Of a DNA stretch of 53,469 bases, positions 2,876 through 53,418 are shown in pieces. How positions within the stretch are numbered: the first letter of the stretch is position 1; every line of letters begins with the position of its first letter. The position numbers and the translations under genes were made by a program. The notes beneath the pieces are model-generated. The model searched no databases, had not been told where the DNA came from, and was given only the letters and a program-made list of their open reading frames with translations. Origin of the DNA: Prorocentrum cordatum (taxonomy: Eukaryota); assembly GCA_963575745.1 (NCBI GenBank), contig CAUYUJ010000312.1, positions 62,001-115,469 on the forward strand, in the 5' to 3' direction.

Positions 2876-2972
2876 GATGTTGATGTTGATGTTGTCGTTA
2901 TTGTTGTCGTTCTTGTTGTCGTCGTAGTCGTCGTCGTCGTTGTCGTCGTTGTTGTTGTCGTTGTCGTTGTCG

Positions 2973-3039
<67 letters not shown>

Positions 3040-3061
3040 CGTTATCGTTGTCGTTGTTGTT
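2750..3061. repeat. (GTT/GTC)n microsatellite
   Basis: Direct inspection; further (GTT)n tracts at 4058-4403, 6214-6360, 7358-7538, 8435-8506, 9258-9372, 10169-10212 and 10890-11103. Confidence 0.97.
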
Positions 3062-3773
3062 GGATTCTCATTTCTGAAGAATAATTATTGTTGATCCCCC
3101 CCACCGGTGCATACTGTTTTTCTCAATCAAAGTGTGCCCCTTGACGCTCGCACCCTGTTTTTTGTCAGGGAAAGTCTTCCTGCTCAAACTGGCCCCCTGG
3201 CCCCCGGGTTACAACGGCTCCCGCCGGAGACTTCCTTACAATTTAGCCAGGACCCCCGCTCCCGCCCGAGACTTCCTCGCATTCTATTCAGGAATCGCGC
3301 TCTCGCTTGGGACTTCCTTACAATTTAATCAGGAATCGCTCTCCCGGCGCTCTGAAACCGCGCTCTCGCTGGAGACTTGCTTGCAACTTACTGAAGAATG
3401 GCCTTGCGTTGGAATTTCTTACGATTTGCCCAAGCGCCGCGCTCCCGACACCCAGGCACCCAGGAGTCGCGCCCGTTGTGGCCCCATGTGCGTGCCCTTC
3501 GTGGCCCCGCTGTCGCCATTTGTCTCCCTCACTGTCCTACGTGGCCCAGTTGCTACCCTCAGTGGCCCCATAGTTGCCTTCTGTGGCCCCGCATTATCTG
3601 CCCTAACGTGGCCCCCGCTCGTTCGCATTCTTCGTGGCCCCAGACGCATTCCCTACGTGTCCCCGCTGTCGCCCTTCGTGGCCTACTTCGTGCCCTTCGT
3701 GGTCCTGCTGTCGTTCTCTCTCGCTCTCGCTTTCGCTCGTCGTCGCCGTCGTCGTCGTCGCCGTCGTCTTCGA

Positions 3774-3809
<36 letters not shown>

Positions 3810-4055
3810 GGTCGGTCCCCTGTCCGTCCCTCTTGAGGTCGGGTCGACGGTCCGCGGCCGCCCCGCCGATCAGCGCTGCCGCTGGCCAGGCCGACGGTCC
3901 GCGGCCGCCCCACCGCTTGCCGGGGCCCGGCCTGCAGGGAAGAAAGGTATACCCCCCAGAAGGGGTTCGATCGAAGACGAAGAGGGCGGGTATCGAGGGT
4001 TTGGGAAATACGCGTTATTGGACACTCGAGAATATAAGGGTGAGCAGTCTTTAAC
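3062..4055. mobile_element. Non-coding module type A, copy 1, flanked by (GTT)n
   Basis: Starts TTTCTGAAGAATAATTATTGTTGATCCCCC and ends ...GATCGAAGACGAAGAGGGCGGGTATCGAGG...CAGTCTTTAA; nearly collinear with 6360-7352. Confidence 0.6.
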
Positions 4056-4232
4056 TTATTGTTGTAGTTCTTGTTGTGGTTGTCGTTGTTGTTGTTGTTG
4101 TTGTTGTGGTTGTTGTTATACTTGTTTTTGTGGTTGTCGTTGTGGCTGTTGTTGTTGTCGTTGGTGTTGCTGTTGCTGTTGCTGTTGCTGCTGTTGTTGC
4201 TGTTGTTGCTGTCGTCGTTGTTGTTAATTATT

Positions 4233-4286
<54 letters not shown>

Positions 4287-5947: not shown

Positions 5948-6224
5948 ACGTCGTCGTCGTCGTCGTGGTCGGTCCCCTGTCCGTCCCTCTTGAGGTCGGG
6001 TCGACGGTCCGCGGCCGCCCCGCCGATCAGCGCTGCCGCTGGCCAGGCCGACGGTCCGCGGCCGCCCCGCCGTTTGCCGGGGCCCCGCCTGCAGGGAAGA
6101 ATGGTATACCCCCCAAAAGGGATTCGATCGAAGACGAAGAGGGGGTATCGAAGGTTAGGGAAATACGCGTTATTGGACACTCGAGTAGATAAGGGCGAAC
6201 AGTGTTAAACTGATTGTTGTTGTT

Positions 6225-6286
<62 letters not shown>

Positions 6287-6315
6287 CGCCGTCGTCGTCG
6301 TCGTCGTCGTTGTCG

Positions 6316-6359
<44 letters not shown>

Positions 6360-7352
6360 GAATCCTCCTTTCTGAAGAATAATTGTTGTTGATCCCCCCC
6401 CACCGGTGCATGCTGTTTTTCTCAATCAAAGTGTACCCCTCGACGCTCGCACCCTGTTTTTGGACAGGAAAGTCTTGATGCTCAAACTGGGCCCCTGGCC
6501 CCCGGGTTACAACAACAACGGATCCCGCCTGAGACTTCCTCACAATTTAGCCAGGACCCCCGCTCCCGCCCGAGACTTCCTCGCATTTTATTCAGGAATC
6601 GCGCTCTCGCTTTGGACTTCCTTACAACTTATTCAGGAATCGCTCTTCTGGCGCTCTGGAGTCGCGCTCTCGCTGGAGACTTTCTTGCAATTTACTGAAG
6701 AATGGCCTTGCGTTGGAATTTCCTACGATTTGCCCAAGCGCCGCGCTCCCGACACCCAGGCACCCAGGAGTCGCGCCCGTTGTGGCCCCATGTGCATGCC
6801 CTTCGTGGCCCCGCTGTCGCCATCGGTGTCCCCCTCACTGTCCTACGTGGCCCAGTTGCTTCCCTCAGTGGCCCCATAGTTGCCTTCTGTGGCCCCGCAT
6901 TATCTGCCCTTCGTGGCCCCCGCTCGTTCGCGCTCTTCGTGGCCCCATACGCATTCCCTTCGTGTCCCCGCTGTCGCCCTTCGTGGCCTACTTCGTGTCC
7001 TTCGTGGCCCTGCTGTCGTTCTCTCTCGCTCTCGCTTTCGCTCGTCGTCGCCGTCGTCGTCGTCGTCGTCGCCGTCGTCTACTACGTCGTCGTCGTCGTC
7101 GTCGTGGTCGGTCCCCTGTCCGTCCCTCTGGGGGTCGGGTCGACGGTCCGCGGCCGCCCCTCCGATCAGCGCTGCCGCTGGCCAGGCCGACGGTCCGCGG
7201 CCGCCCCGCCGTTTGCCGGGGCCCGGCCTGCAGGGAAGAAAGGTATACCCCCCAAAAGGGGTTCGATCGAAGACAAAGAGGGCGGGTATCGAGGTTTTGG
7301 GAAATACGCGTTATTGGACACTCGAGCATAAAAGGGCGAACAGTCTTAAAAT
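6360..7352. mobile_element. Module type A, copy 3
   Basis: Collinear with 3062-4055 along its whole length. Confidence 0.6.
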
Positions 7353-7431
7353 TATTATTGTTGTTGTTGTCGCCGTCGTTGTCGTTGTCGGTCGTTGTCG
7401 TTGTCGTTGTCGTTGACGACGTTGTTGTTGC

Positions 7432-7505
<74 letters not shown>

Positions 7506-7537
7506 TTAGTATTGTTGTTGTTGCTGTTGTTGTTGTT

Positions 7538-8433
7538 GAACATTATTCCTTCTAAAGAATTATTATTGTTGGGACCCCTGGTGCGCGACCTCTGCGCCGC
7601 GCCTAGGCCGCAGCTACATTTTCATCATTTTTTCGCGAAAGCTTCAGAAAAGTGGATGAGCTCCGGATCCGGTTTTTTGTTGACGCTCGTTTTCCCTTGC
7701 AAAAAACAATAGAAAATGAAAATTCTTGTTTTTACTTGATCAAATTGCAAGAATCCCTTGCAAAAAATAAGGTAAAGTGGACATTCGTGCGCGCAAGACG
7801 AAATCCTTCCAAAACCTTAGGTTTCGTAACGATTTTAACATAAAAACATCAAAAACCCAATGGTTTTCTCAGACAAAATTGTCAAAATGTCCTTCCGCGC
7901 GCTCTTGCGGATTCCTAGGAAACCCACCAGATTTTAAACATTTCTGTTAAAAGGGCCTTTTCGAGGCGCCTTCCCAGGAATTTGCCTCAAAAATGTGACC
8001 AACTATCTTGGCACTGCGTACCATCTCACGTGTACCGTGTACCACATCTTCTCAGGTTGCCTCACACATGTGACGAATCTCTTTCTATCTCTCTCTCCAC
8101 TGGCTCTCTGTCTTGCTCTCTCTCTCTCTCTGTCTCTCTGTACTATGTATGTCATACGCAACAAATGCACCATGCGGGGCACATGCGGGGCCCAAACAAG
8201 TGATCAACCTCTGCGGGTGTGTACTCCACGCCAGTGTAGTATCCACGATCGTCCGCGCGCCACGAAGTGAAGTGTCCTGACGTCATAGGGCGGGAAGCTG
8301 GGTGTGGGTGGTTCCCGAGAGTCGTGTGGATGTTTGGTAGAGCTTGCATTGCCCCCCCACGAAGTGGGGGTATTGGCTGGCGTCGCATGAAAACCCTGGC
8401 ACTGGGGAGAACACTGAGCGTTCGGGTAAAATG
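7538..8433. mobile_element. Module type B, copy 1, flanked by (GTT)n
   Basis: Starts GAACATTATT..TTCTAAAGAAT.ATTATTGTTGGG and ends GAAAACCCTGGCACTGGGGAGAACAC...GCGTTCGGGTAAAATG; homologous to 9373-10167. Confidence 0.6.
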
Positions 8434-15316: not shown

Positions 15317-16022
15317 TTCGGGCGTGCCAAGTGAAGCACGCTCTCATCACATCACCGAGCAGGGCAGAGCAGTGTGGAACGCACCAGAGCAGGATGCCAT
15401 GGGAGGAATGGGATCGAGGATCGGGAGGGGAGGAGCAGCGCTTTTGCGGAGACTGTGGAGGATGCGACTGCGGAGGAGGAGGAGGAGCAGGAGAAGCAGG
15501 AGGAGAGGGAGGGAGAACGAGGAGGAGGAGGAGGCGGAGGAGGAGGATGAGGAGGAGAAAGAGGGAGGATTCTCACGTTGAGCAGCCTGCGCGCAGGAGC
15601 GTTGGTTTGAGGGCATGGTCAAACCAGGCGGCGCGGCCAGTCATGACAACATCGATTGCTCCCCCCTTCATGTGTTTTGACAAGCTGGGACCACCGCCCT
15701 GCTTCATGCCCTTCCTTCTCTACAGCTGCCTTTCTCCGCCACCGATCTGCCTCCCTTGACCCCAGGCTCGCTCGCTGCCCTCGCGCCCTCCTCCTCCTCC
15801 TCCTCCTCCTCCTCCTCCTCCTCCTCCTCCTCCTCCTCCTCCTCCTCCTCCCCTCCTCCTCCAGCTGGGCCCTCTGAGCGGGGGGCCGCGCCCCGAGGCC
15901 TCGGCCAGGACCAGATCGCAAGATGCTTCCTGGGGGCCAGGGGCCGGCTGCGTGCGGAGCCGCCAGGCTCGGAGGTGCAGAGTGGGGGGGGGGGGGGGGG
16001 GGGCGATGGCCCGTCGCGGCGT

Positions 16023-16101
16023 GGGGGCCACATGCGAACCCTATCCCTACCCCCCACGACTTCGGAGGGGGGTAGGGGTGGGGGTTCGCATGTGGCCCCC
16101 C
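16023..16101. mobile_element. ~80-bp fold-back element (GGGGGCCACATGCGAACCC family) flanked by ~40-bp direct repeats
   Basis: Arms are reverse complements; GCAGAGT-(G)n-ATGGCCCGTCGCGGCGT lies on both sides (15977-16022, 16103-16140). Confidence 0.8.
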
Positions 16102-16279
16102 GGCAGAGTCGGGGGGGGGGGGGATGGCCCGTCGCGGCGTGGGGTCCGGGCGCAGATCCAGGAGATCCGCGCGGACGTTGCCAGAGTTTCCTCTGCTCCA
16201 GCTTCTGCCCTCTTTTTTTTTTTTGTTTTTCCTCCGCGGCCCGCGGCTGCGCGGATCGGAGCGCACCTCTCGTGTCTCC

Positions 16280-32944: not shown

Positions 32945-34840
32945 GATGATGCTGCTGCTCCTGATGATGACGACGCTGATGATGCTGATGATGCTGGTGA
33001 TGATACTGATGATGTCGATGATGATGCTGATGATGATGCTGTTGATGATGATGTTGATGCTGATGCTGATGCTTATACTGATGATCTCGATAATGCTGCT
33101 GATGATGCTGCTGTTGATGCTGATGATGCTGATGATGTTGCTTAGGATGATGCTGCTGATGCTGCTGATGCTGATGATGTTGATGATTATGATGTTGCTG
33201 ATGTAATGATGCTGATGCTGGTACTGATTGTGATCATGCTGCTGCAGTTGCTGCTACTGCTGATTAGGATGCTGATGATGCTGATGATGCTGATGATGCT
33301 GATTATGATGCTGATGCTGGTGATGATGCTGATGCTGATGATGATGATGATGATGATGATGATGCTGACGTCGATTCTGACGAGGATGCTAATGCTGCTG
33401 CTGATGATGATGATGATGATGCTGATGCTGACGCTGCTGCTGATGCTGATGATGCTGATGATGATGACGATGATGATGCTGATGATGCTGATGATGCTGT
33501 TGATGATGATGCTTATGATGCTGATGATGCTGATGCTGCTGATGGTGGTGGTGGTGGTGATAAGGATGCTGCTGATGCTGATGATGATGAGGATGATGCT
33601 GATGCTGCTTATGTTGATGATGCTGATGATGCCGATGGTGCTGATGATGATGCTGCTGATGATGATGATGATGATGATGATGCTGATGATGATGATGATG
33701 ATGCTGATGATACTGATGATGATGCTGCTGACGATGATGATGGTGATGCTGCTGGTGATGTTGATGATGCTGATGCTGATGCTGCTGATGATAATGACGA
33801 TGCTGATGCTGATGATGATGATGATGATGATGCTGATGATGATGCTGATGACGCTGGTGTTGGTGGTGAGGATGCTGATGATGATGCTGATGTCAATGAT
33901 GATGCTGCTGATGCTGCTGATGATTATGGTGATGATGCTGATGCTGCTGATGATGATGCTGATACTGATGCTGATGATGATGCTGATGCTGCTGATGATG
34001 ATGTTTATTATGCTGATGATGCTGGTGACGATGATGATGCTGATGCTGATGATGATGCTGATGATGCTGATGACGCTGATGTGGATGCTGATGCTGATGA
34101 TGATGCTGTTGCTGCTGATGGTGATGCTGATGAAGCCGATGCTGCTGCTCCTAACGATTTTGATGATGATGGTGATGGTGATGTTGATACTGATGTTGAT
34201 GCTGATGATGATGAGGATGCTGATACCGCTGATGATGCTGATGATGCTGCTGATTATGATGACGATGATAATGATTCTGCTGTTGCTGCTGATGATGATG
34301 ATGATGAGGAGGAGGAGGAGGAGGAGGAGGATGAGGAGGAGGAGGCGGAGGAAGAGAGGGATGAGGAAGAGGAGGGAGGATGAGAGATGATGATGCTGAT
34401 GATGATGATGAGGAGGAGAGAAGGAGGAGAGGAGGAGGAGGAGGAGGAGGGAGGAGGAGGGGGAGGGAGGAGGAGAGGGAGGATGAGAGGAGGATTAGGA
34501 GGAGGAGGAGGAGGATGATGCGGATGAGGCAGAGGAGGATGAGGAGGGGAGGAGGATGAGGATGAGGATGAGGAGAGGAGGATGAGGAGGATGGGTGAGG
34601 AGGAGGAGGAGAGGAGGAGGAGGAGGAGGAGGGAGGAGGAGGGAGGAGGGAGGAGCGAGGAGGAGGAGAGGAGGAGGGGAGGCGGTGGAGGAGGAGGAGG
34701 GGGAGGGGGAGGGGGGGGGAGGAGGGGGGGGGAGGTGGAGGGAGGGGGAAGGAGGAGAGGAGGAGGAGGAGGAGGAGGAGGAGGAGGCGGCGGAGGAGGA
34801 GGAGGAGGAGGAGGAGGAGGAGGAGGAGGAGGAGGAGGGG
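32945..34840. repeat. (GAT/GCT)n tract of ~1.4 kb followed by a (GAG)n tract
   Basis: Direct inspection. Confidence 0.97.
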
Positions 34841-36682: not shown

Positions 36683-37050
36683 AGAGAGGAGGGAGGAGGA
36701 GGAGGAGGAGGGAGGAGGAGGAGGAGGAGGAGGAGGAGGAGGACTCCCCCCCCCTCTCCCTAGGGACCCCCCTCCCTCCCGGTGTGCAGGTCGGCCGCCC
36801 GCCGCCCGAGCCCGGGTACGCCGGGAGCGAGGGCCCGCTGCCGCGCACGGGCGAGCCGCCCGCTCCGGGGTGGGGTGGGGGGGAGTCCTCCTCCTCCTTC
36901 TCTTCCTCCTCCTCCTCCTCCTCCTCCTTCTCCTTCTCCTTCTCCTTCTCCTCCTCCTCCTCCTCATCATCATCATCGTCGGAAGGGGAGGGGGGGGGGG
37001 GCGGAGGTCGGCGGCTGCGGAGGGCGTGGCTGCTCGGGCCGAAGGAACGG

Positions 37051-37166
37051 TCAGAGACCCGAATCATCAGGGGTGACTCGGGTCAGGGCTAGCTCGGGTT
37101 CGTTCTTCGGGAGTCCGAACCCGAGTTACCCCGGACCCGCGTTACCCCGGATAACTCGGGCGTCCA
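37051..37166. mobile_element. 116-bp fold-back element flanked by ~59-bp direct repeats
   Basis: Left arm GAGACCCGAATCATCAGGGGTGACTCGGGTCAGGGCTAGCTCGGGTTCG resembles the reverse complement of the right arm (GACGCCCGAGTTATCCGGGGTAACGCGGGTCCGGGGTAACTCGGGTTCG); DRs at ~36992-37050 and 37167-37225. Confidence 0.75.
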
Positions 37167-37360
37167 GGGGGGGGGGCGGAGGTCGGCGGCTGCGGAGGGC
37201 GTGGCTGCTCGGGCCGGAGGAACGGGGGGGATAGGCAGGGCGCCATACGCGAACCCTGCCCCTGGCGGCCCGCTCCGGGGTGGGGGTGGGGGGGGGGGGA
37301 GGTCGGCGGCTGCGGAGGGCGTGCCTGCTCGGGCCGAACGGACGGGGGGATGGGCGGGGC

Positions 37361-37508
37361 GCCACACGCGAAGCCTGCCCCTGCCCCCCACGATCTCTGA
37401 GGGGGAGGGTGGGGTTCCCTCCGTGCGGGAGCTCCCCAGCGAAGTGAACCCCACCCTCCCCCTCAGAAATCGTGGGGGGGTAGGGGTAGGGTTCGCGTGT
37501 GGTCCCCT
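37361..37508. mobile_element. ~150-bp TIR element, GCCACACGCGAACCC family
   Basis: Homologous to 43781-43936 including internal GCGAAGTGAACCCCACCCTCC; no flanking duplication seen. Confidence 0.8.
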
Positions 37509-37703
37509 AATAGGGAAAAGGGGGGGGTACGAAGTCTGCTGCATGCAGCTGGTTTCGGCCCCGCCGCCGGGCCCATTCCTCGACACATGGGCGCCTCCGG
37601 CGCCGGGAGGCGCCGGGGAATCAGCTACGCGAGCTGATTCTCACCCCCCCCCTTTGCTATCCCCCCCCTTTCGCCCGGCCGAGCTGCGGGGGAGGAAAAT
37701 CAG

Positions 37704-43121: not shown

Positions 43122-43780
43122 CCTCTTGCCAGTCTGCCCGATGGGGTCCGATGGCATCCTGAGCCACAGCCTGGTCCACAGAAGGCCTGTCCTGGCATCG
43201 GGGCCTCCGCTTTGGAGCCCTCGTCGGGCCCGAGCTCGCTGGGAGGGGACCCGTGCCCCGCCGAGACGACGAAAGCGACAACAAATTCGGATGCAACTCC
43301 TGGGAGGTCAAATTCAGAGCTCGCCCTGGTCCGAAATCCGGCTCAATCCGGTTTGTTCCCGCTTGCTCCTGCCTAGTCCCGTTGAACCCGGCTTAATCCC
43401 GCTTGATCCGCGGTCCAATCCGGAGTAGCAGCCCCATCCTTCCGACGAAGACCTCCCAGTAGTTTCAGGAGGGGGCAAAGACACACAGGCACAATTCACT
43501 GTCGATTCCCCAGGACATCTGGGAAGCCATGGGAGGTGGGGGGGGAAGACGAAAATCCCCCCAAAATGGGAAAGTATGGGGACTCCTGTCACTTGTGTGT
43601 ATTTCTTTGTGTGCCCTTGGGCCTCCTCGCGGTTGCCTCCTGGGCCTCCTGGTGACTGGCCGGGGCGCCGTCTGCCGACGTGCGCGGCAGCCTCGTGCCG
43701 TGCCGGTACGGCGGCGACCTCAGCGGCGCGGGCGCCCCGGGTCTGCAGGTCGCCGGCCTGCGCCTGACTAGCGACATCGA

Positions 43781-43936
43781 CAGGGGGCCACACGCGAACC
43801 CTGCCCCTACTCCCCACGAGTTCTGGAGGGGAGGGCTGGGTTCACCTCGTTCGAGAGCTCCCGAGCGAAGTGAACCCCACCCTCCTCCTAAAAAATCGTG
43901 GGTGGTAGGGGTAGGGTTCGCGTGTGGCCCCCTACA
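43781..43936. mobile_element. 156-bp TIR element flanked by 41-bp direct repeats
   Basis: TIR AGGGGGCCACACGCGAACCCT; DR GGTCTGCAGGTCGCCGGCCTGCGCCTGACT(A/G)GCGACATCGA at 43740-43780 and 43937-43977 with 1 mismatch. Confidence 0.9.
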
Positions 43937-44261
43937 GGTCTGCAGGTCGCCGGCCTGCGCCTGACTGGCGACATCGAGCGAGCCTGCGCGATCAGCACGC
44001 CCAGAGATCGAACGTATTGAAGAAAGCACGACGGGTTTTTTGTTGTCGCTATTTCTTCGGCCTCTGGGGGCCCTCGCCGGGCCCCAGGACCGTCAAAAAA
44101 CGACTCAGGATGAGAAATCGGTCCTGGAGAAGGGGTCGAGACTTCTGGGGACCCCGTCTTGAAAAAATCACGACATCGGATCTATGGGAGCCGCGGTCGG
44201 TCAAGGCTGAGCGATCCACGCGGCGCCACCGAGCAAGTCGTCACTACCCGAACCCGCCGTA

Positions 44262-45230: not shown

Positions 45231-46765
45231 GGGGGCTGCGATCTGCGAAACTGTCGCCACTTTCGAGGGCTGCTGGTGGGTCCTGCGGAGTGAGGCACCG
45301 CGCAGATCTGAGCGGGACCTCGCCGTGCCTGGGGGGCTGCGATTTGCCAAACCATCGCCACTTTCGAGGGCTGCTGGTGGGTCCTGCGGAGTGAGGCACC
45401 GCGCAGATCTGATCTGAGCGGGACCTCGCCGTGCCTGGGGGGCTGCGATCTGCGAAGCTGTCGCCACTTTCGAGGGCTGCTGGTGGGTCCAGCGGAGTGA
45501 GGCACCGCGCAGATTCGAGCGGGACCTCGCCGTGCCAGGGGGGCTGCGATCTGCGAAGCTGTCGCCATTTTCGTGGGCTGCTGGTGGGTCCTGCGGGGTG
45601 AGGCACCGCGCAGATTTGAGCGGGACCTCGCCGTGCCAGGGGGGCTGCGATCTGCGAAATTGCCGCCACTTTCGAGGGCTGCTGGTGGGTCCTGCGGAGT
45701 GCGATCTGAGCGGGACCTCGCCGTGCCAGGGGGGCTGCGATCTGCGAATTTGTCTCCACTTTCGAGGGCTGCTAGTGGGTCCTGCGGAGTGAGGCACCGC
45801 GCAGATCTGAGCGGGACCTCGCCGTGCCAGGGGGGCTGCGATCTGCGAAATTGTCGCCACTTTCGAAGGCTGCTGGTGGGTCCTGCGGAATGAGGCACCG
45901 CGCAGATCTGAGCGGGACCTCGCGGTCCCTGGGGGGCTGCGATCTGCGAATTTGTCGCCATTTTCGAGGGCTGCTGGTGGGTCCAGCGGAGTGAGGCACT
46001 GCGCAGATCTGAGCGGGGCCTCGCCGTGCCTGGGGGGCTGCGATCTGCGAAGCTGCCGCCCTTTCGAGGGCTGCTGGTGGGTCCAGCGGAGTGAGGCACC
46101 GCGCAGATCTGAGCGGGACCTCGCCGTGCCAGGGGGGCTGCGATCTGCGAATTTGTCTCCACCTTCGAGGGCTGCTGGTGGGTCCTGCGGAGTGAGGCAC
46201 CGCGGGGATCTGAGCGGGACCTCGCCGTCCCTGGGGGGCTGCGATCTGCGAAACTGTCGCCACTTTCGAGGGCTGCTGGTGGGTCCTGCGGAGTGAGGCA
46301 CCGCGCAGATCTGAGCGGGCCCTCGGCCGTGCCTGGGGGCTGCGATCTGCAAGACTTTCGAGGGCTGCTGGTGGGTGGGGGGCTGCGATCTGCGAAACGG
46401 AGTGAGTGGCACCGCGCAGATCTGAGCGGACCTCGCCGTGCCTGAGGGCTGCGCTGCGCGATCTGCGAAGCTGTCGCCACTTTCGAGGGCTGCTGGTGGG
46501 TCCAGCGGAGTGAGGCACCGCGCAGATCTGAGCGGGACCTCGCCGTGCCTGGGGGGCTGCGATCTGCGAAACGGTCGCCACTTTCGAGGGCTGCTGGTGG
46601 GTCCTGCGGAGTGAGGCACCGCGCAGATCTGAGCGGGACCTCGCCGTGCCTGGGGGGCTGCGATCTGCGAAACCGTCGCAACTTTCGAAGGCTGGTGGCG
46701 GGTTCAGCGGAGCGAGGCTCCAAACAGATCTGAGCGAGACATCGCAATCCTTGGGGGGCTGCGAG
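45231..46765. repeat. 101-bp tandem satellite, about 15-16 units
   Basis: Unit GGGGGGCTGCGATCTGCGAA.CTGTCGCCACTTTCGAGGGCTGCTGGTGGGTCC.GCGGAGTGAGGCACCGCGCAGATCTGAGCGGGACCTCGCCGTGCC; starts at 45231, 45332 and onward. Confidence 0.97.
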
Positions 46766-50139: not shown

Positions 50140-50303
50140 GATGATGATGCTGCTGATGATGATGCTGCTGATGATGACGATGATGATTATGAGGGATGTG
50201 GTGGCGATGATGACGATGATGATGGTGGTGATGATGCTGCTGATATTTGTGGTGGTGATGATGGGTGGTGGTGGTGGTGGTGGTGGTGGTGGTGGTGGTG
50301 GTG

Positions 50304-50351
<48 letters not shown>

Positions 50352-50353
50352 CC

Positions 50354-50407
<54 letters not shown>

Positions 50408-50957
50408 AATGATGATGATGATGATGCTGCTCATGATGATACTGATGGTGATGATACTGAGGATAATTATGACGATGCTGATGATGATGATAATGATGCT
50501 GGCGATGCTAATGACAATGGTAATGATACTGATAATGATAATGATACTGTTGATGGTGATGCTGATGGTGATGGTGGTGGTGGTGATGGTGGTGGTGGTG
50601 ATGATGTTGCTGCTGCTGATGATGATGATGAGGCTAATGCTGATGCTGAGGACGATGACGATGACGATGATGAGGATGTTGTTGATGATGATGATGGTGA
50701 CGATGATGTTTTTGATGATGATGGATTCGGATGCTGATGTCACGATGATGATGATGCTGATGATGAAGATGACGATGATGCTGCTGATGATGCTGATGAT
50801 ATGGATAATGATGATGGTGATGCTGATGCTGCTGATGATGCTGATTATGATGATGGTGAGGGTGTTGATGGTCATGGTGTTGGCGATGGCGATGGTGATG
50901 GTGTTGGCGATGGCGATGTTGATGCTGCTGATGATGATGGTGATTATCATGATGTTG

Positions 50958-51003
<46 letters not shown>

Positions 51004-51083
51004 CGATGATGGGTGGTGTTGGTGGTGGTGGTGGTGGTGTGGATGATGATGATGATACTGATGATGATGATGATGATGATGCC

Positions 51084-51144
<61 letters not shown>

Positions 51145-51195
51145 CTGATGCTGATGCTGCTGCTGATGATGATGACGGATGATGATGATGATGAT

Positions 51196-51230
<35 letters not shown>

Positions 51231-51582
51231 GTGAATGCTGATGGATGATGATGATGATGAGGATGAGGATGAGGTGCGGATGAGGATGATGAGAGATGAG
51301 GATGATGCTGATGATGATGATGATGATGGTGATGAGATGAAATGATGATGATGATGATGATGATGTGATGATGTGATGATGATGATGATGATGATGATAT
51401 GATGATGGGATGAGGATGAGGATGAGGAATGATGAGGAGGAGGATGATGATGCTGCTGATGAATGATGATGATGATGATGATGATGATGGTGATGGTGTG
51501 ATGATGATGATGATGATGATGATGATGAGGAATGAGGATAGAGGTGAATGATGATGAGGATGAGGATGATGGATGCTGATGA

Positions 51583-51651
<69 letters not shown>

Positions 51652-51671
51652 TTGATGTTGATGATGATGCT

Positions 51672-51714
<43 letters not shown>

Positions 51715-51770
51715 TTGATGTTGATGCTGCTGCTGCTGCTGCTGCTGCTGGGTGGTGGTGGTGGTGTGGG
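50140..51770. repeat. (GAT/GCT/GGT)n compound microsatellite of ~1.6 kb
   Basis: Direct inspection. Confidence 0.97.
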
Positions 51771-52529
51771 TGGTCCTCTCGGAGCTCCACGCCCGCTGGG
51801 CAGGGAGCGGGTGGGCGGGACCGGGGAGGCACGGAGAGGGGGGAGAGGGAGGAGGGGACCGGGCCAGGGCAGGGATGGGGGCGGGCAGGGCGAGAGGGGC
51901 ATGGGAAGGGGGGAGGGAGCGAGGCATGGGAAGGGGGGAGGGAGCGAGGCATGGGAAGGGGGGAGGGAGGCCGGGGCTGGTGGCCGACGAGAGGAGGGAC
52001 CGGGGCATGGGAAGGGGGGAGGGAGCGAGGGCGGCGTGGGAAGTGGAGTGGGAAGTGGAGTGGTGGCAGGAGCATTGGCCCATCGCGAAGTCTGACAGCG
52101 AAGGGCCCATCGCGAAGTCTGACAGCGAAGGGGAAGATCATGCCGAGTGCGAGGAAGGCATGCTTGCAGACGCCCACGGATCTTCACACCGACTTCGGGT
52201 CTCTCGGCCACCAGCCGGCATGGGAGCGGAAAGGCATCGGAGACCACGCTCAGGCTGGGGAAAGCCGATCCCACGTGTGGCAGAAGTACTTTCGGGCCTG
52301 CTGCTACACCGAGAGCGGTGAAGCAACGTGTGCGAGCGCTTGGTATTTTCGGCCCGACCCAGGAGTCGGGCTGCAGACCCAGGGGCAACCTGCCGAGGTG
52401 TCAGTCACCACCTTAGAGGGGCGCGCAGAGGTGCACGTACATGCGGACGCAGACGCACCACTGCAGCCCAGCACTCGGAGTAAACCCGGGGTGCCGAAGC
52501 ACAACTGCCATCTCTCGAGACCCTGCTGC

Positions 52530-52583
52530 CCTAGGATGGACGTCCCCGCTAATGTCGAACTGGAACCAGGATACCCCGTAGAC
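52530..52583 (-). CDS. Candidate exon VYGVSWFQFDISGDVHPR (3' boundary uncertain)
   Basis: Begins at CAG|GT inside the left direct repeat and continues the frame of 52801-52878; possible AGG|GC donor. Confidence 0.4.
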
Positions 52584-52592
52584 CTGGACTTT

Positions 52593-52793
52593 GGTAGGGG
52601 AACGAGAAATGACATACACATAAAAACCCGGAGGTCCGCGCGGATTTCTTGGATCCGCGCTGGACCACCCTCCCTGGCGCGCGGAGTGCGCAAGGGGCGG
52701 CGCCGAAGGCGCCGCCAGGGGGCCCCAGCGCGGATCCGAGAAGTCCGCGCGGACCTCCGAGTTTTTATGCTCATGTCGTTGGTCGTTCCCTGA
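52593..52793. mobile_element. 201-bp TIR element flanked by 16-bp direct repeats; candidate introner
   Basis: ~65-bp TIRs (GGGAACGA...CATAAAAAC.CGGAGGTCCGCGCGGA.TTCT.GGATCCGCGCTGG); DR CGTAGACCTGGACTTT at 52577-52592 and 52794-52809; internal hairpin GGCGGCGCC-GAA-GGCGCCGCC. Confidence 0.88.
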
Positions 52794-52800
52794 CGTAGAC

Positions 52801-52878
52801 CTGGACTTTTGTGCTCCTTCGCCGCCAGACGAGAAGCATGGTGCCGACGGTGCCCTCGATAGACGAGAAGCGGCAGCC
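52801..52878 (-). CDS. Candidate exon GCRFSSIEGTVGTMLLVWRRRSTKVQ, product unknown
   Basis: CCAG|G acceptor and CAG|GT donor, 26 whole codons mostly ending in G/C, protein-like composition. Confidence 0.45.
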
Positions 52879-53388
52879 CTGGCGCCACCCGGAAGGCCAC
52901 GAGGCGAGGCGAGGACCGCAGCCCGGGACAGCCCGCGCGAGCCACGCGGAGCCCCCGCAGGCTGCTGCAGGAGGCCCGCGGGAGGGAGGGCAGGACGGGA
53001 GTGCAAGGGCCGGCCGCGCGCAGACGGGGGCTGACTTTTGGTCGGTTGAACATTTTGTTCTCGAAATTCAACAATTCGTTAGAGCTCTAGTATTTTTTCC
53101 CATGGTATTCGATCTTATTCCCGCTCGCCATCTTGATCTGAGCTCGATCGGGTCTCTTTACTGCCAAAAAGCAGGCAGGCGATCGGCCGTATGGGGGAGG
53201 GGACAAGGCCTTCTAGAAGCACCCCTGCTTCCTGCAGGCGCGGGCCTTCCCTCTGCGCGTAAGGCCGGCGCCCTTCTACAGAAGCGGCCCCCTTCCAAGA
53301 AGTCTTCCCCCCTCCCCCTGCCCCCTTGTGCGCGCCGCCAGGCGGGGTGGGAGCGAGGGCGGAAGGGCGGGGGGAAGGAAGGATGAGA

Positions 53389-53418
53389 TGTGTGTGTGTG
53401 TGCGTGTGTGTGTGTGTG

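Follow-up and report, generated by a model that had tools for sequence, protein, structure and literature searches.

A hairpin element between long direct repeats, with introner-like splice-site geometry, in repeat-rich dinoflagellate DNA

The window analysed here, i.e. the whole stretch of 53,469 bp, contains at 52593-52793 a foldback, MITE-like element of 201 bp that belongs to a very high-copy family and has no recognised coding capacity. Its left (52598-52671) and right (52717-52790) inverted arms measure 74 nt each, are 84% complementary to one another and are separated by 45 nt. The element is bracketed by two perfect copies of a 16-bp direct repeat, at 52577-52592 (copy 1) and 52794-52809 (copy 2). 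These are the only two occurrences of the 16-mer in the window, and two matches were obtained in none of 100 dinucleotide shuffles; at 95% likeness the repeat reaches 19 nt. Folded computationally as RNA, the element together with its two repeats gives a single long hairpin (−157.9 kcal/mol, z = −14.8), and an equally good fold was found in 0 of 200 shuffles. Terminal inverted repeats, small size and lack of coding capacity, the features by which MITEs are recognised, are all present. An earlier note on this DNA had described a TIR element set between copies of a 16-bp duplicated target, and this description is borne out by the paired 16-mer, the 74-nt arms and the shuffles. The sequence supports the view that the focal element is of the TIR (foldback) type and that locus-specific DNA has been duplicated over some length on its two sides.

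The surroundings are very rich in repeats. The locus itself amounts to ∼0.9 kb of unique DNA, bounded by a 1.6-kb GAT microsatellite (50140-51726) with other tandem repeats, by a hyper-abundant repeat and by a TG microsatellite. Elsewhere in the window, self-matches over 45231-46764, offset by ∼101 bp, are suggestive of tandemly arrayed 101-bp units, kilobase-scale segmental duplications are present (e.g. 6214-7538 versus 2916-4257, at 89%), and low-complexity tracts at 33146-34494 and 1183-1717 display a 3-base GC periodicity. The GC content of the window is mostly 50–66%; that of the P. cordatum genome is 59.7% (PMC10666404). A search of the whole window against Rfam at gathering scores returned 0 matches, a search at E ≤ 1 over 52300-53400 returned one chance-level match (20.3 bits versus a gathering score of 112), and no tRNA was found.

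The interest of the element lies in what its repeats would offer to a minus-strand transcript. In that orientation the upstream exon-like side stops with ...CAG at 52801, within copy 2, which then supplies a GT (52800-52799); copy 1 supplies an AG (52585-52584) followed by a G (52583) that would be the first base of the downstream exon. This is the only GT...AG pairing within the 16-bp repeat, and its use would excise precisely the element together with one copy of the repeat. The hypothetical intron (52584-52800, minus strand, GT...AG|G) would be 217 nt long (3n + 1), and its removal restores the target exactly. GY...AG boundaries at the edge of element and target site duplication (TSD), a hallmark of introners, can thus be read directly from the sequence. 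As the earlier note had stated, the GT donor comes from one copy of the repeat and the AG acceptor from the other, and removing 52584-52800 unites the two frames it had drawn. We therefore considered the possibility, raised in that note, that the element is introner-like, having hit a minus-strand coding exon of a lineage-specific gene, and that it is spliced out from GT to AG so that the mRNA is unchanged and the insertion tolerated. In favour of this are the exact GT...AG|G geometry itself, with a junction that falls between codons (phase 0) of the GC3-richest open frame, a pyrimidine-rich stretch immediately upstream of the AG and the computed hairpin, which would juxtapose both splice sites. 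The sites are also compatible with those of P. cordatum, in which AGG acceptors account for 79.7% and donors are GT (24.7%), GC (51.4%) or GA (23.8%) (Table 2 of PMC10666404). On the other side, 217 nt is far below the mean intron length of 4.7 kb reported for this species (PMC10666404). Chance has to be weighed as well: of random 16-mers taken from the window, 6.6% carry AGGT on one or the other strand and 32% carry AGG[T/C/A], and the chance of AGG[T/C/A] on a given strand is 1.3% for 4 bp, 16% for 16 bp, 39% for 41 bp and 51% for 59 bp.

If the element interrupted an exon, its flanks would be expected to look like coding sequence. The upstream exon-like flank (52801-52878, minus strand) has GC1-3 values of 0.50/0.58/0.81 in the frame of the earlier note and stays open to 53067; the downstream flank (52416-52583, minus strand) is open for 56 codons before a stop and has GC1-3 values of 0.56/0.39/0.78 over 52530-52583. 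Openness as evidence of coding was rejected: the minus-strand frames of 52416-53067 contain 4, 0 and 0 stops, so that all three are largely open and two continue uninterrupted across the element, and 11% of Markov-1 simulations leave a 145-codon frame free of stops. In the 132 nt joined after removal of the 217 nt, the GC-periodicity statistic is 0.284, a value matched by 0.3–0.4% of non-repetitive 132-nt windows and equal to or above those found along the real coding sequence of a related locus described below (0.09–0.30), and the periodicity phase of the two flanks is continuous only once the 217 nt are removed, as the introner-like reading would have it. However, the periodic signal spans only ∼130 nt, and with unbiased bounds of ±66 nt the statistic falls to 0.182 (upper tail 8.7%). 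Periodicity was likewise rejected as proof of coding, given that a non-coding hyper-abundant repeat some 200–230 bp away scores 0.33 (53002-53181) and is clearly not a unique exon. Of the 'open, GC3-rich frame' claimed earlier, the richness in GC3 stands within the bounds chosen there (joined GC1-3 0.52/0.50/0.80); the signal is weaker outside them, and the openness carries no weight.

Nor did searches for homologues point to a known protein. The earlier note had looked to homologues of the joined peptide as a check on its proposal; they were sought for both flank peptides (89 and 56 aa) and for a 221-aa read-through, and none was found for either flank. Against 1.84 billion representative proteins the upstream 89 aa gave three weak matches at E ≤ 0.001, one to a protein of 7,265 aa for which no matching stretch was given and two in 6–7 stretches at 32–33% identity, which we read as low-complexity matches. 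The downstream 56 aa had no match among longer or near-length proteins, and the read-through query yielded nothing beyond its element-derived part. Of the 321 stop-to-stop ORFs of at least 100 aa in the window, the 120 with the highest residue entropy were scanned against Pfam; none reached the curated cut-off, one gave a sub-threshold match and no transposase domain was found among them. For the introner-like reading the lack of homologues is unfavourable, the more so as the database searched includes P. cordatum proteins, and so is the position of the locus between the GAT microsatellite, other tandem repeats and the TG microsatellite. Little weight attaches, however, to the absence of homologues, since functional annotation is missing for over half of the gene models of P. 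cordatum (PMC10666404).

The abundance of the family was assessed by placing contigs of public DNA runs on 52150-53390 at a likeness of at least 85% (5,198 contigs in run X1); the summed contig depths obtained in this way are not copy numbers. Over the element core (52612-52779) the depth was about 2.1–4.7 × 10^4 in X1, 0.65–2.0 × 10^4 in X2 and 1.0–1.9 × 10^5 in X3, versus 3.2 for a contig identical to the unique flank 52299-52530. The focal element family is very abundant and, as is characteristic of introners, is present in many copies in one genome (core 10^4–10^5 versus ∼3 for the flank, X1–X3). The bins bearing the 16-mer (52570-52611 and 52780-52821) have a depth of only 28–83, which indicates that the 16-mer is locus-specific and lies outside the element family. 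Among the contigs of the public runs, whose cover of the flanks is missing in parts, there was neither a contig bridging the element nor an empty site. Another repeat, at 53030-53173, ∼230 bp from the element, reaches summed depths of 2.2–4.6 × 10^5 in X1 and 1.8–3.1 × 10^5 in X3 versus ∼3 for unique DNA; it has no second copy in the window and no Rfam match, and its loose-end consensus indicates that other copies go on past both ends.

Other copies of the focal family provide a view of where it inserts. The window holds no second full copy, only a 27–36-nt fragment at 16141-16176. The core pattern was found at two loci in metagenome contigs (L001 and L002) and had 0 matches in viral contigs and 0 in prokaryote genome contigs. 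In L001, the source of the coding sequence used above for comparison, one end of an element lies ∼20 nt past the stop codon that closes a persuasive reading frame of 147 codons; this site is not an intron position. L002 is a full copy of the same architecture with no recognisable gene context and no detectable flanking duplication (347–365 of 1000 shuffles score equally). The frame through the element matched a single protein, listed for Prorocentrum cordatum as a 362-aa 'unnamed protein product' (38/51 identical), and the match is confined to element-derived residues, i.e. the gene model reads the element as exon. Taken with the GC content of the window, this match would suggest a dinoflagellate of Prorocentrum type. 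This model (P0002) is (d)CMP-kinase-like with an N-terminal kinase domain (PF13671); its residues 262–312 are a translation of the element family within a low-complexity C-terminal tail, and it looks as though the model had been extended into DNA that is non-coding or unspliced. The three other family copies examined thus lie after a stop codon, within an exon of a gene model and away from any recognisable gene, and the location of the first two outside intron positions speaks against an introner-like family.

Long duplications are not peculiar to the focal element. Eleven palindromic hairpin-type elements, identified by self-comparison, were tested for abutting direct repeats. Exact abutting repeats of at least 16 bp were present at 3 of the 11 (the focal element, 43782-43933 and 37051-37166), the remaining 7 tested hairpin elements had repeats of just 5–8 bp, and the longest abutting repeat in 600 random placements in non-repetitive DNA was 9 bp. 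A fourth long duplication, at 16022-16105, was noticed by eye; the automatic test had missed it because its G-runs differ in length. In an unbiased listing of direct-repeat pairs, tandem and segmental repeats predominated so heavily that it was left out of these counts. Hairpin elements in the window thus repeatedly, though not always, have long duplications at their flanks. These duplications adjoin the element ends within 0–5 nt, and neither a poly-A stretch nor any other 3' tail can be seen.

The palindromic element at 43782-43933 (152 bp) is unrelated to the focal element yet mirrors its pattern, and this parallel adds to the case for an introner-like origin. Its repeats (43740-43780 and 43937-43977) are exact over 30 bp and agree at 40 of 41 aligned positions. 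They contain CAG|GTC on the plus strand, in phase 0 of the GC3-richest plus-strand frame (GC3 = 0.90), and on the minus strand two AGGC. The periodicity of the flanks is phase-continuous after removal of 197 nt (statistic 0.227, upper tail 3.3%); a stop lies 31 codons upstream of the junction in the same frame. The element at 16022-16105 (within 15977-16144) is a shorter member of the 43782 family, and the focal-family fragment at 16141-16176 comes after it. Its repeat, ∼41–49 bp with 22 bp exact, continues through a G-run (20 versus 13 G) and a GCAGAGT motif, and AGG[T/C/A] is absent from it on both strands. The similar duplication lengths of these two relatives (41 and ∼41–49 bp) hint at a family-specific stagger.

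The longest duplication belongs to the element at 37051-37166. Its repeats (36992-37050 and 37167-37225) are exact over 50 bp and 98% identical over 59 bp by self-BLAST, and contain AGGT and AGGA. A third, more diverged copy of the target is found at 37290-37345; the target is ∼57–59 bp long and begins with a G-run, so that G-runs occur in two of the long duplications (those of the 37051 and 16022 elements). Between target copies 2 and 3 sits a half element of the 43782 family, and a full element of that family (37357-37509) follows copy 3 with no further repeat. The region 36992-37509 looks as if a single hot spot had undergone insertion or duplication in series.

Cut-and-paste families of eukaryotes usually have TSDs of ∼2–11 bp, and the 16 bp found here set the focal element apart from MITEs. 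In other respects it resembles MITEs and foldback DNA transposons, being small, non-coding and high-copy, with long inverted arms and a flanking target duplication (PMC7789003, PMC9860276). The focal element is not known to have an autonomous partner. The closest parallel for its splice-site arrangement is class 14 of Polarella glacialis, in which a 4-nt AGGH TSD provides the donor as well as the acceptor (Roy et al., bioRxiv 10.1101/2020.10.14.339549). Like the focal element, class 14 is described as non-autonomous, with inverted repeats and a target duplication that bears both sites, and its splicing restores the mRNA exactly. An origin of both sites from the TSD is thus a published mode, which favours the introner-like reading; the suggestion of the earlier note that a long target duplication supplied them fits the geometry, but the idea itself was already in print and only the 16-bp length differs. 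Polarella introners differ from the focal element in having TSDs of 3–8 nt according to the same account, and their families were drawn from thousands of annotated spliced introns, whereas the focal site was recognised on sequence grounds and the other copies seen of its family lie outside introns. More broadly, introner TSDs are given as 3–9 bp, with some families co-opting both splice sites (Gozashti et al. 2022, PMC9860276). Introner elements (IEs) of Amoebophrya and P. cordatum have hairpin-forming terminal inverted repeats and direct repeats that span the exon/intron boundaries, as here, and occur in 2.4% of P. cordatum introns (Dougan 2023, PMC10666404, supplement). The pattern by which they were sought, as described in these reports, consists of inverted repeats of 8–20 nt and direct repeats of 3–5 nt (Farhat 2021, PMC7789003; Dougan 2023, PMC10666404), and 74-nt arms with a 16-bp repeat would escape it as such. 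Full-text searches of an open-access library turned up no description of dinoflagellate elements with TSDs this long. A target duplication that supplies both splice sites is a known mode; what is new is its length of 16 bp (and of 41–59 bp at the other elements).

Primate retro-DNAs carry a poly-A tail, and we know of no link between them and dinoflagellates. They do set a precedent for the mobilisation of sequences derived from transposons by a different machinery (PMC11195612), and may carry long TSDs. Unlike the focal element, at which no poly-A is visible, they mobilise by retrotransposition (PMC11195612).

Taking these observations together, we think it probable that a non-autonomous hairpin element inserted, with a 16-bp target duplication, in DNA other than a spliced, expressed exon. 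An abundant foldback/MITE-like element of a Prorocentrum-type dinoflagellate would have entered at a break with nicks 16 nt apart, and fill-in of the overhangs would have duplicated 16 bp of target. On this view it is by chance that the duplicated target contains CAG|GT, and with it any minus-strand transcript would have one GT...AG|G pairing that removes the element plus one repeat copy. The hairpin stem would hold the repeat-borne GT and AG side by side and, if the minus strand were transcribed, the spliceosome could use these sites and restore the pre-insertion message. On balance, the focal copy is rather to be placed in unannotated DNA than regarded as a working intron of an expressed gene, and the host DNA is possibly an orphan exon or a decayed one.

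That the element did strike a coding exon of a lineage-specific gene and is now removed as an introner-like intron is possible, though we hold it to be doubtful. Unlikely, in our estimate, is the broader proposal that the window samples a class of hairpin elements with very long, perhaps family-specific duplications (16, ∼41 and 59 bp) that turn exon hits into exact introns without splice signals of their own, the focal and 43782 copies being two such introns. An origin independent of any transposase, in which the hairpin was copied in at a stalled fork through a template switch during replication or through repair of a break, with synthesis resuming 16 nt upstream, or by a variable second-strand nick as in target-primed reverse transcription, would leave duplications of arbitrary length and would suit the range seen (16, 41, ∼41–49 and 59 bp versus 3–9 bp for introner TSDs; PMC9860276), the G-runs in two duplications, the extremely stable hairpins and the undetectable duplication at L002, the sole other full copy, but it is very improbable given duplications that abut the element ends as in transposition, lengths that agree within the 43782 family and the lack of a visible 3' tail.

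Introners create introns, in dinoflagellates among others; no source of new spliceosomal introns is better supported, and the richest case is that of the dinoflagellates. Published introner families have 3–9-bp TSDs and usually carry one splice site themselves. Should the locus investigated here not be expressed, what remains would be the unusual insertion of a MITE. Follow-up is most warranted for the recurrent long duplications. If a class with 16–59-bp duplications is real, it would imply an insertion machinery with a stagger far beyond that of known eukaryotic transposases, and long duplications would provide a simple statistical route to 'self-healing' insertions, so that the connection of transposition chemistry with the birth of introns could be tested across the genome. 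Elements of this kind would then be predisposed to become exact, harmless introns without any splice signal of their own.
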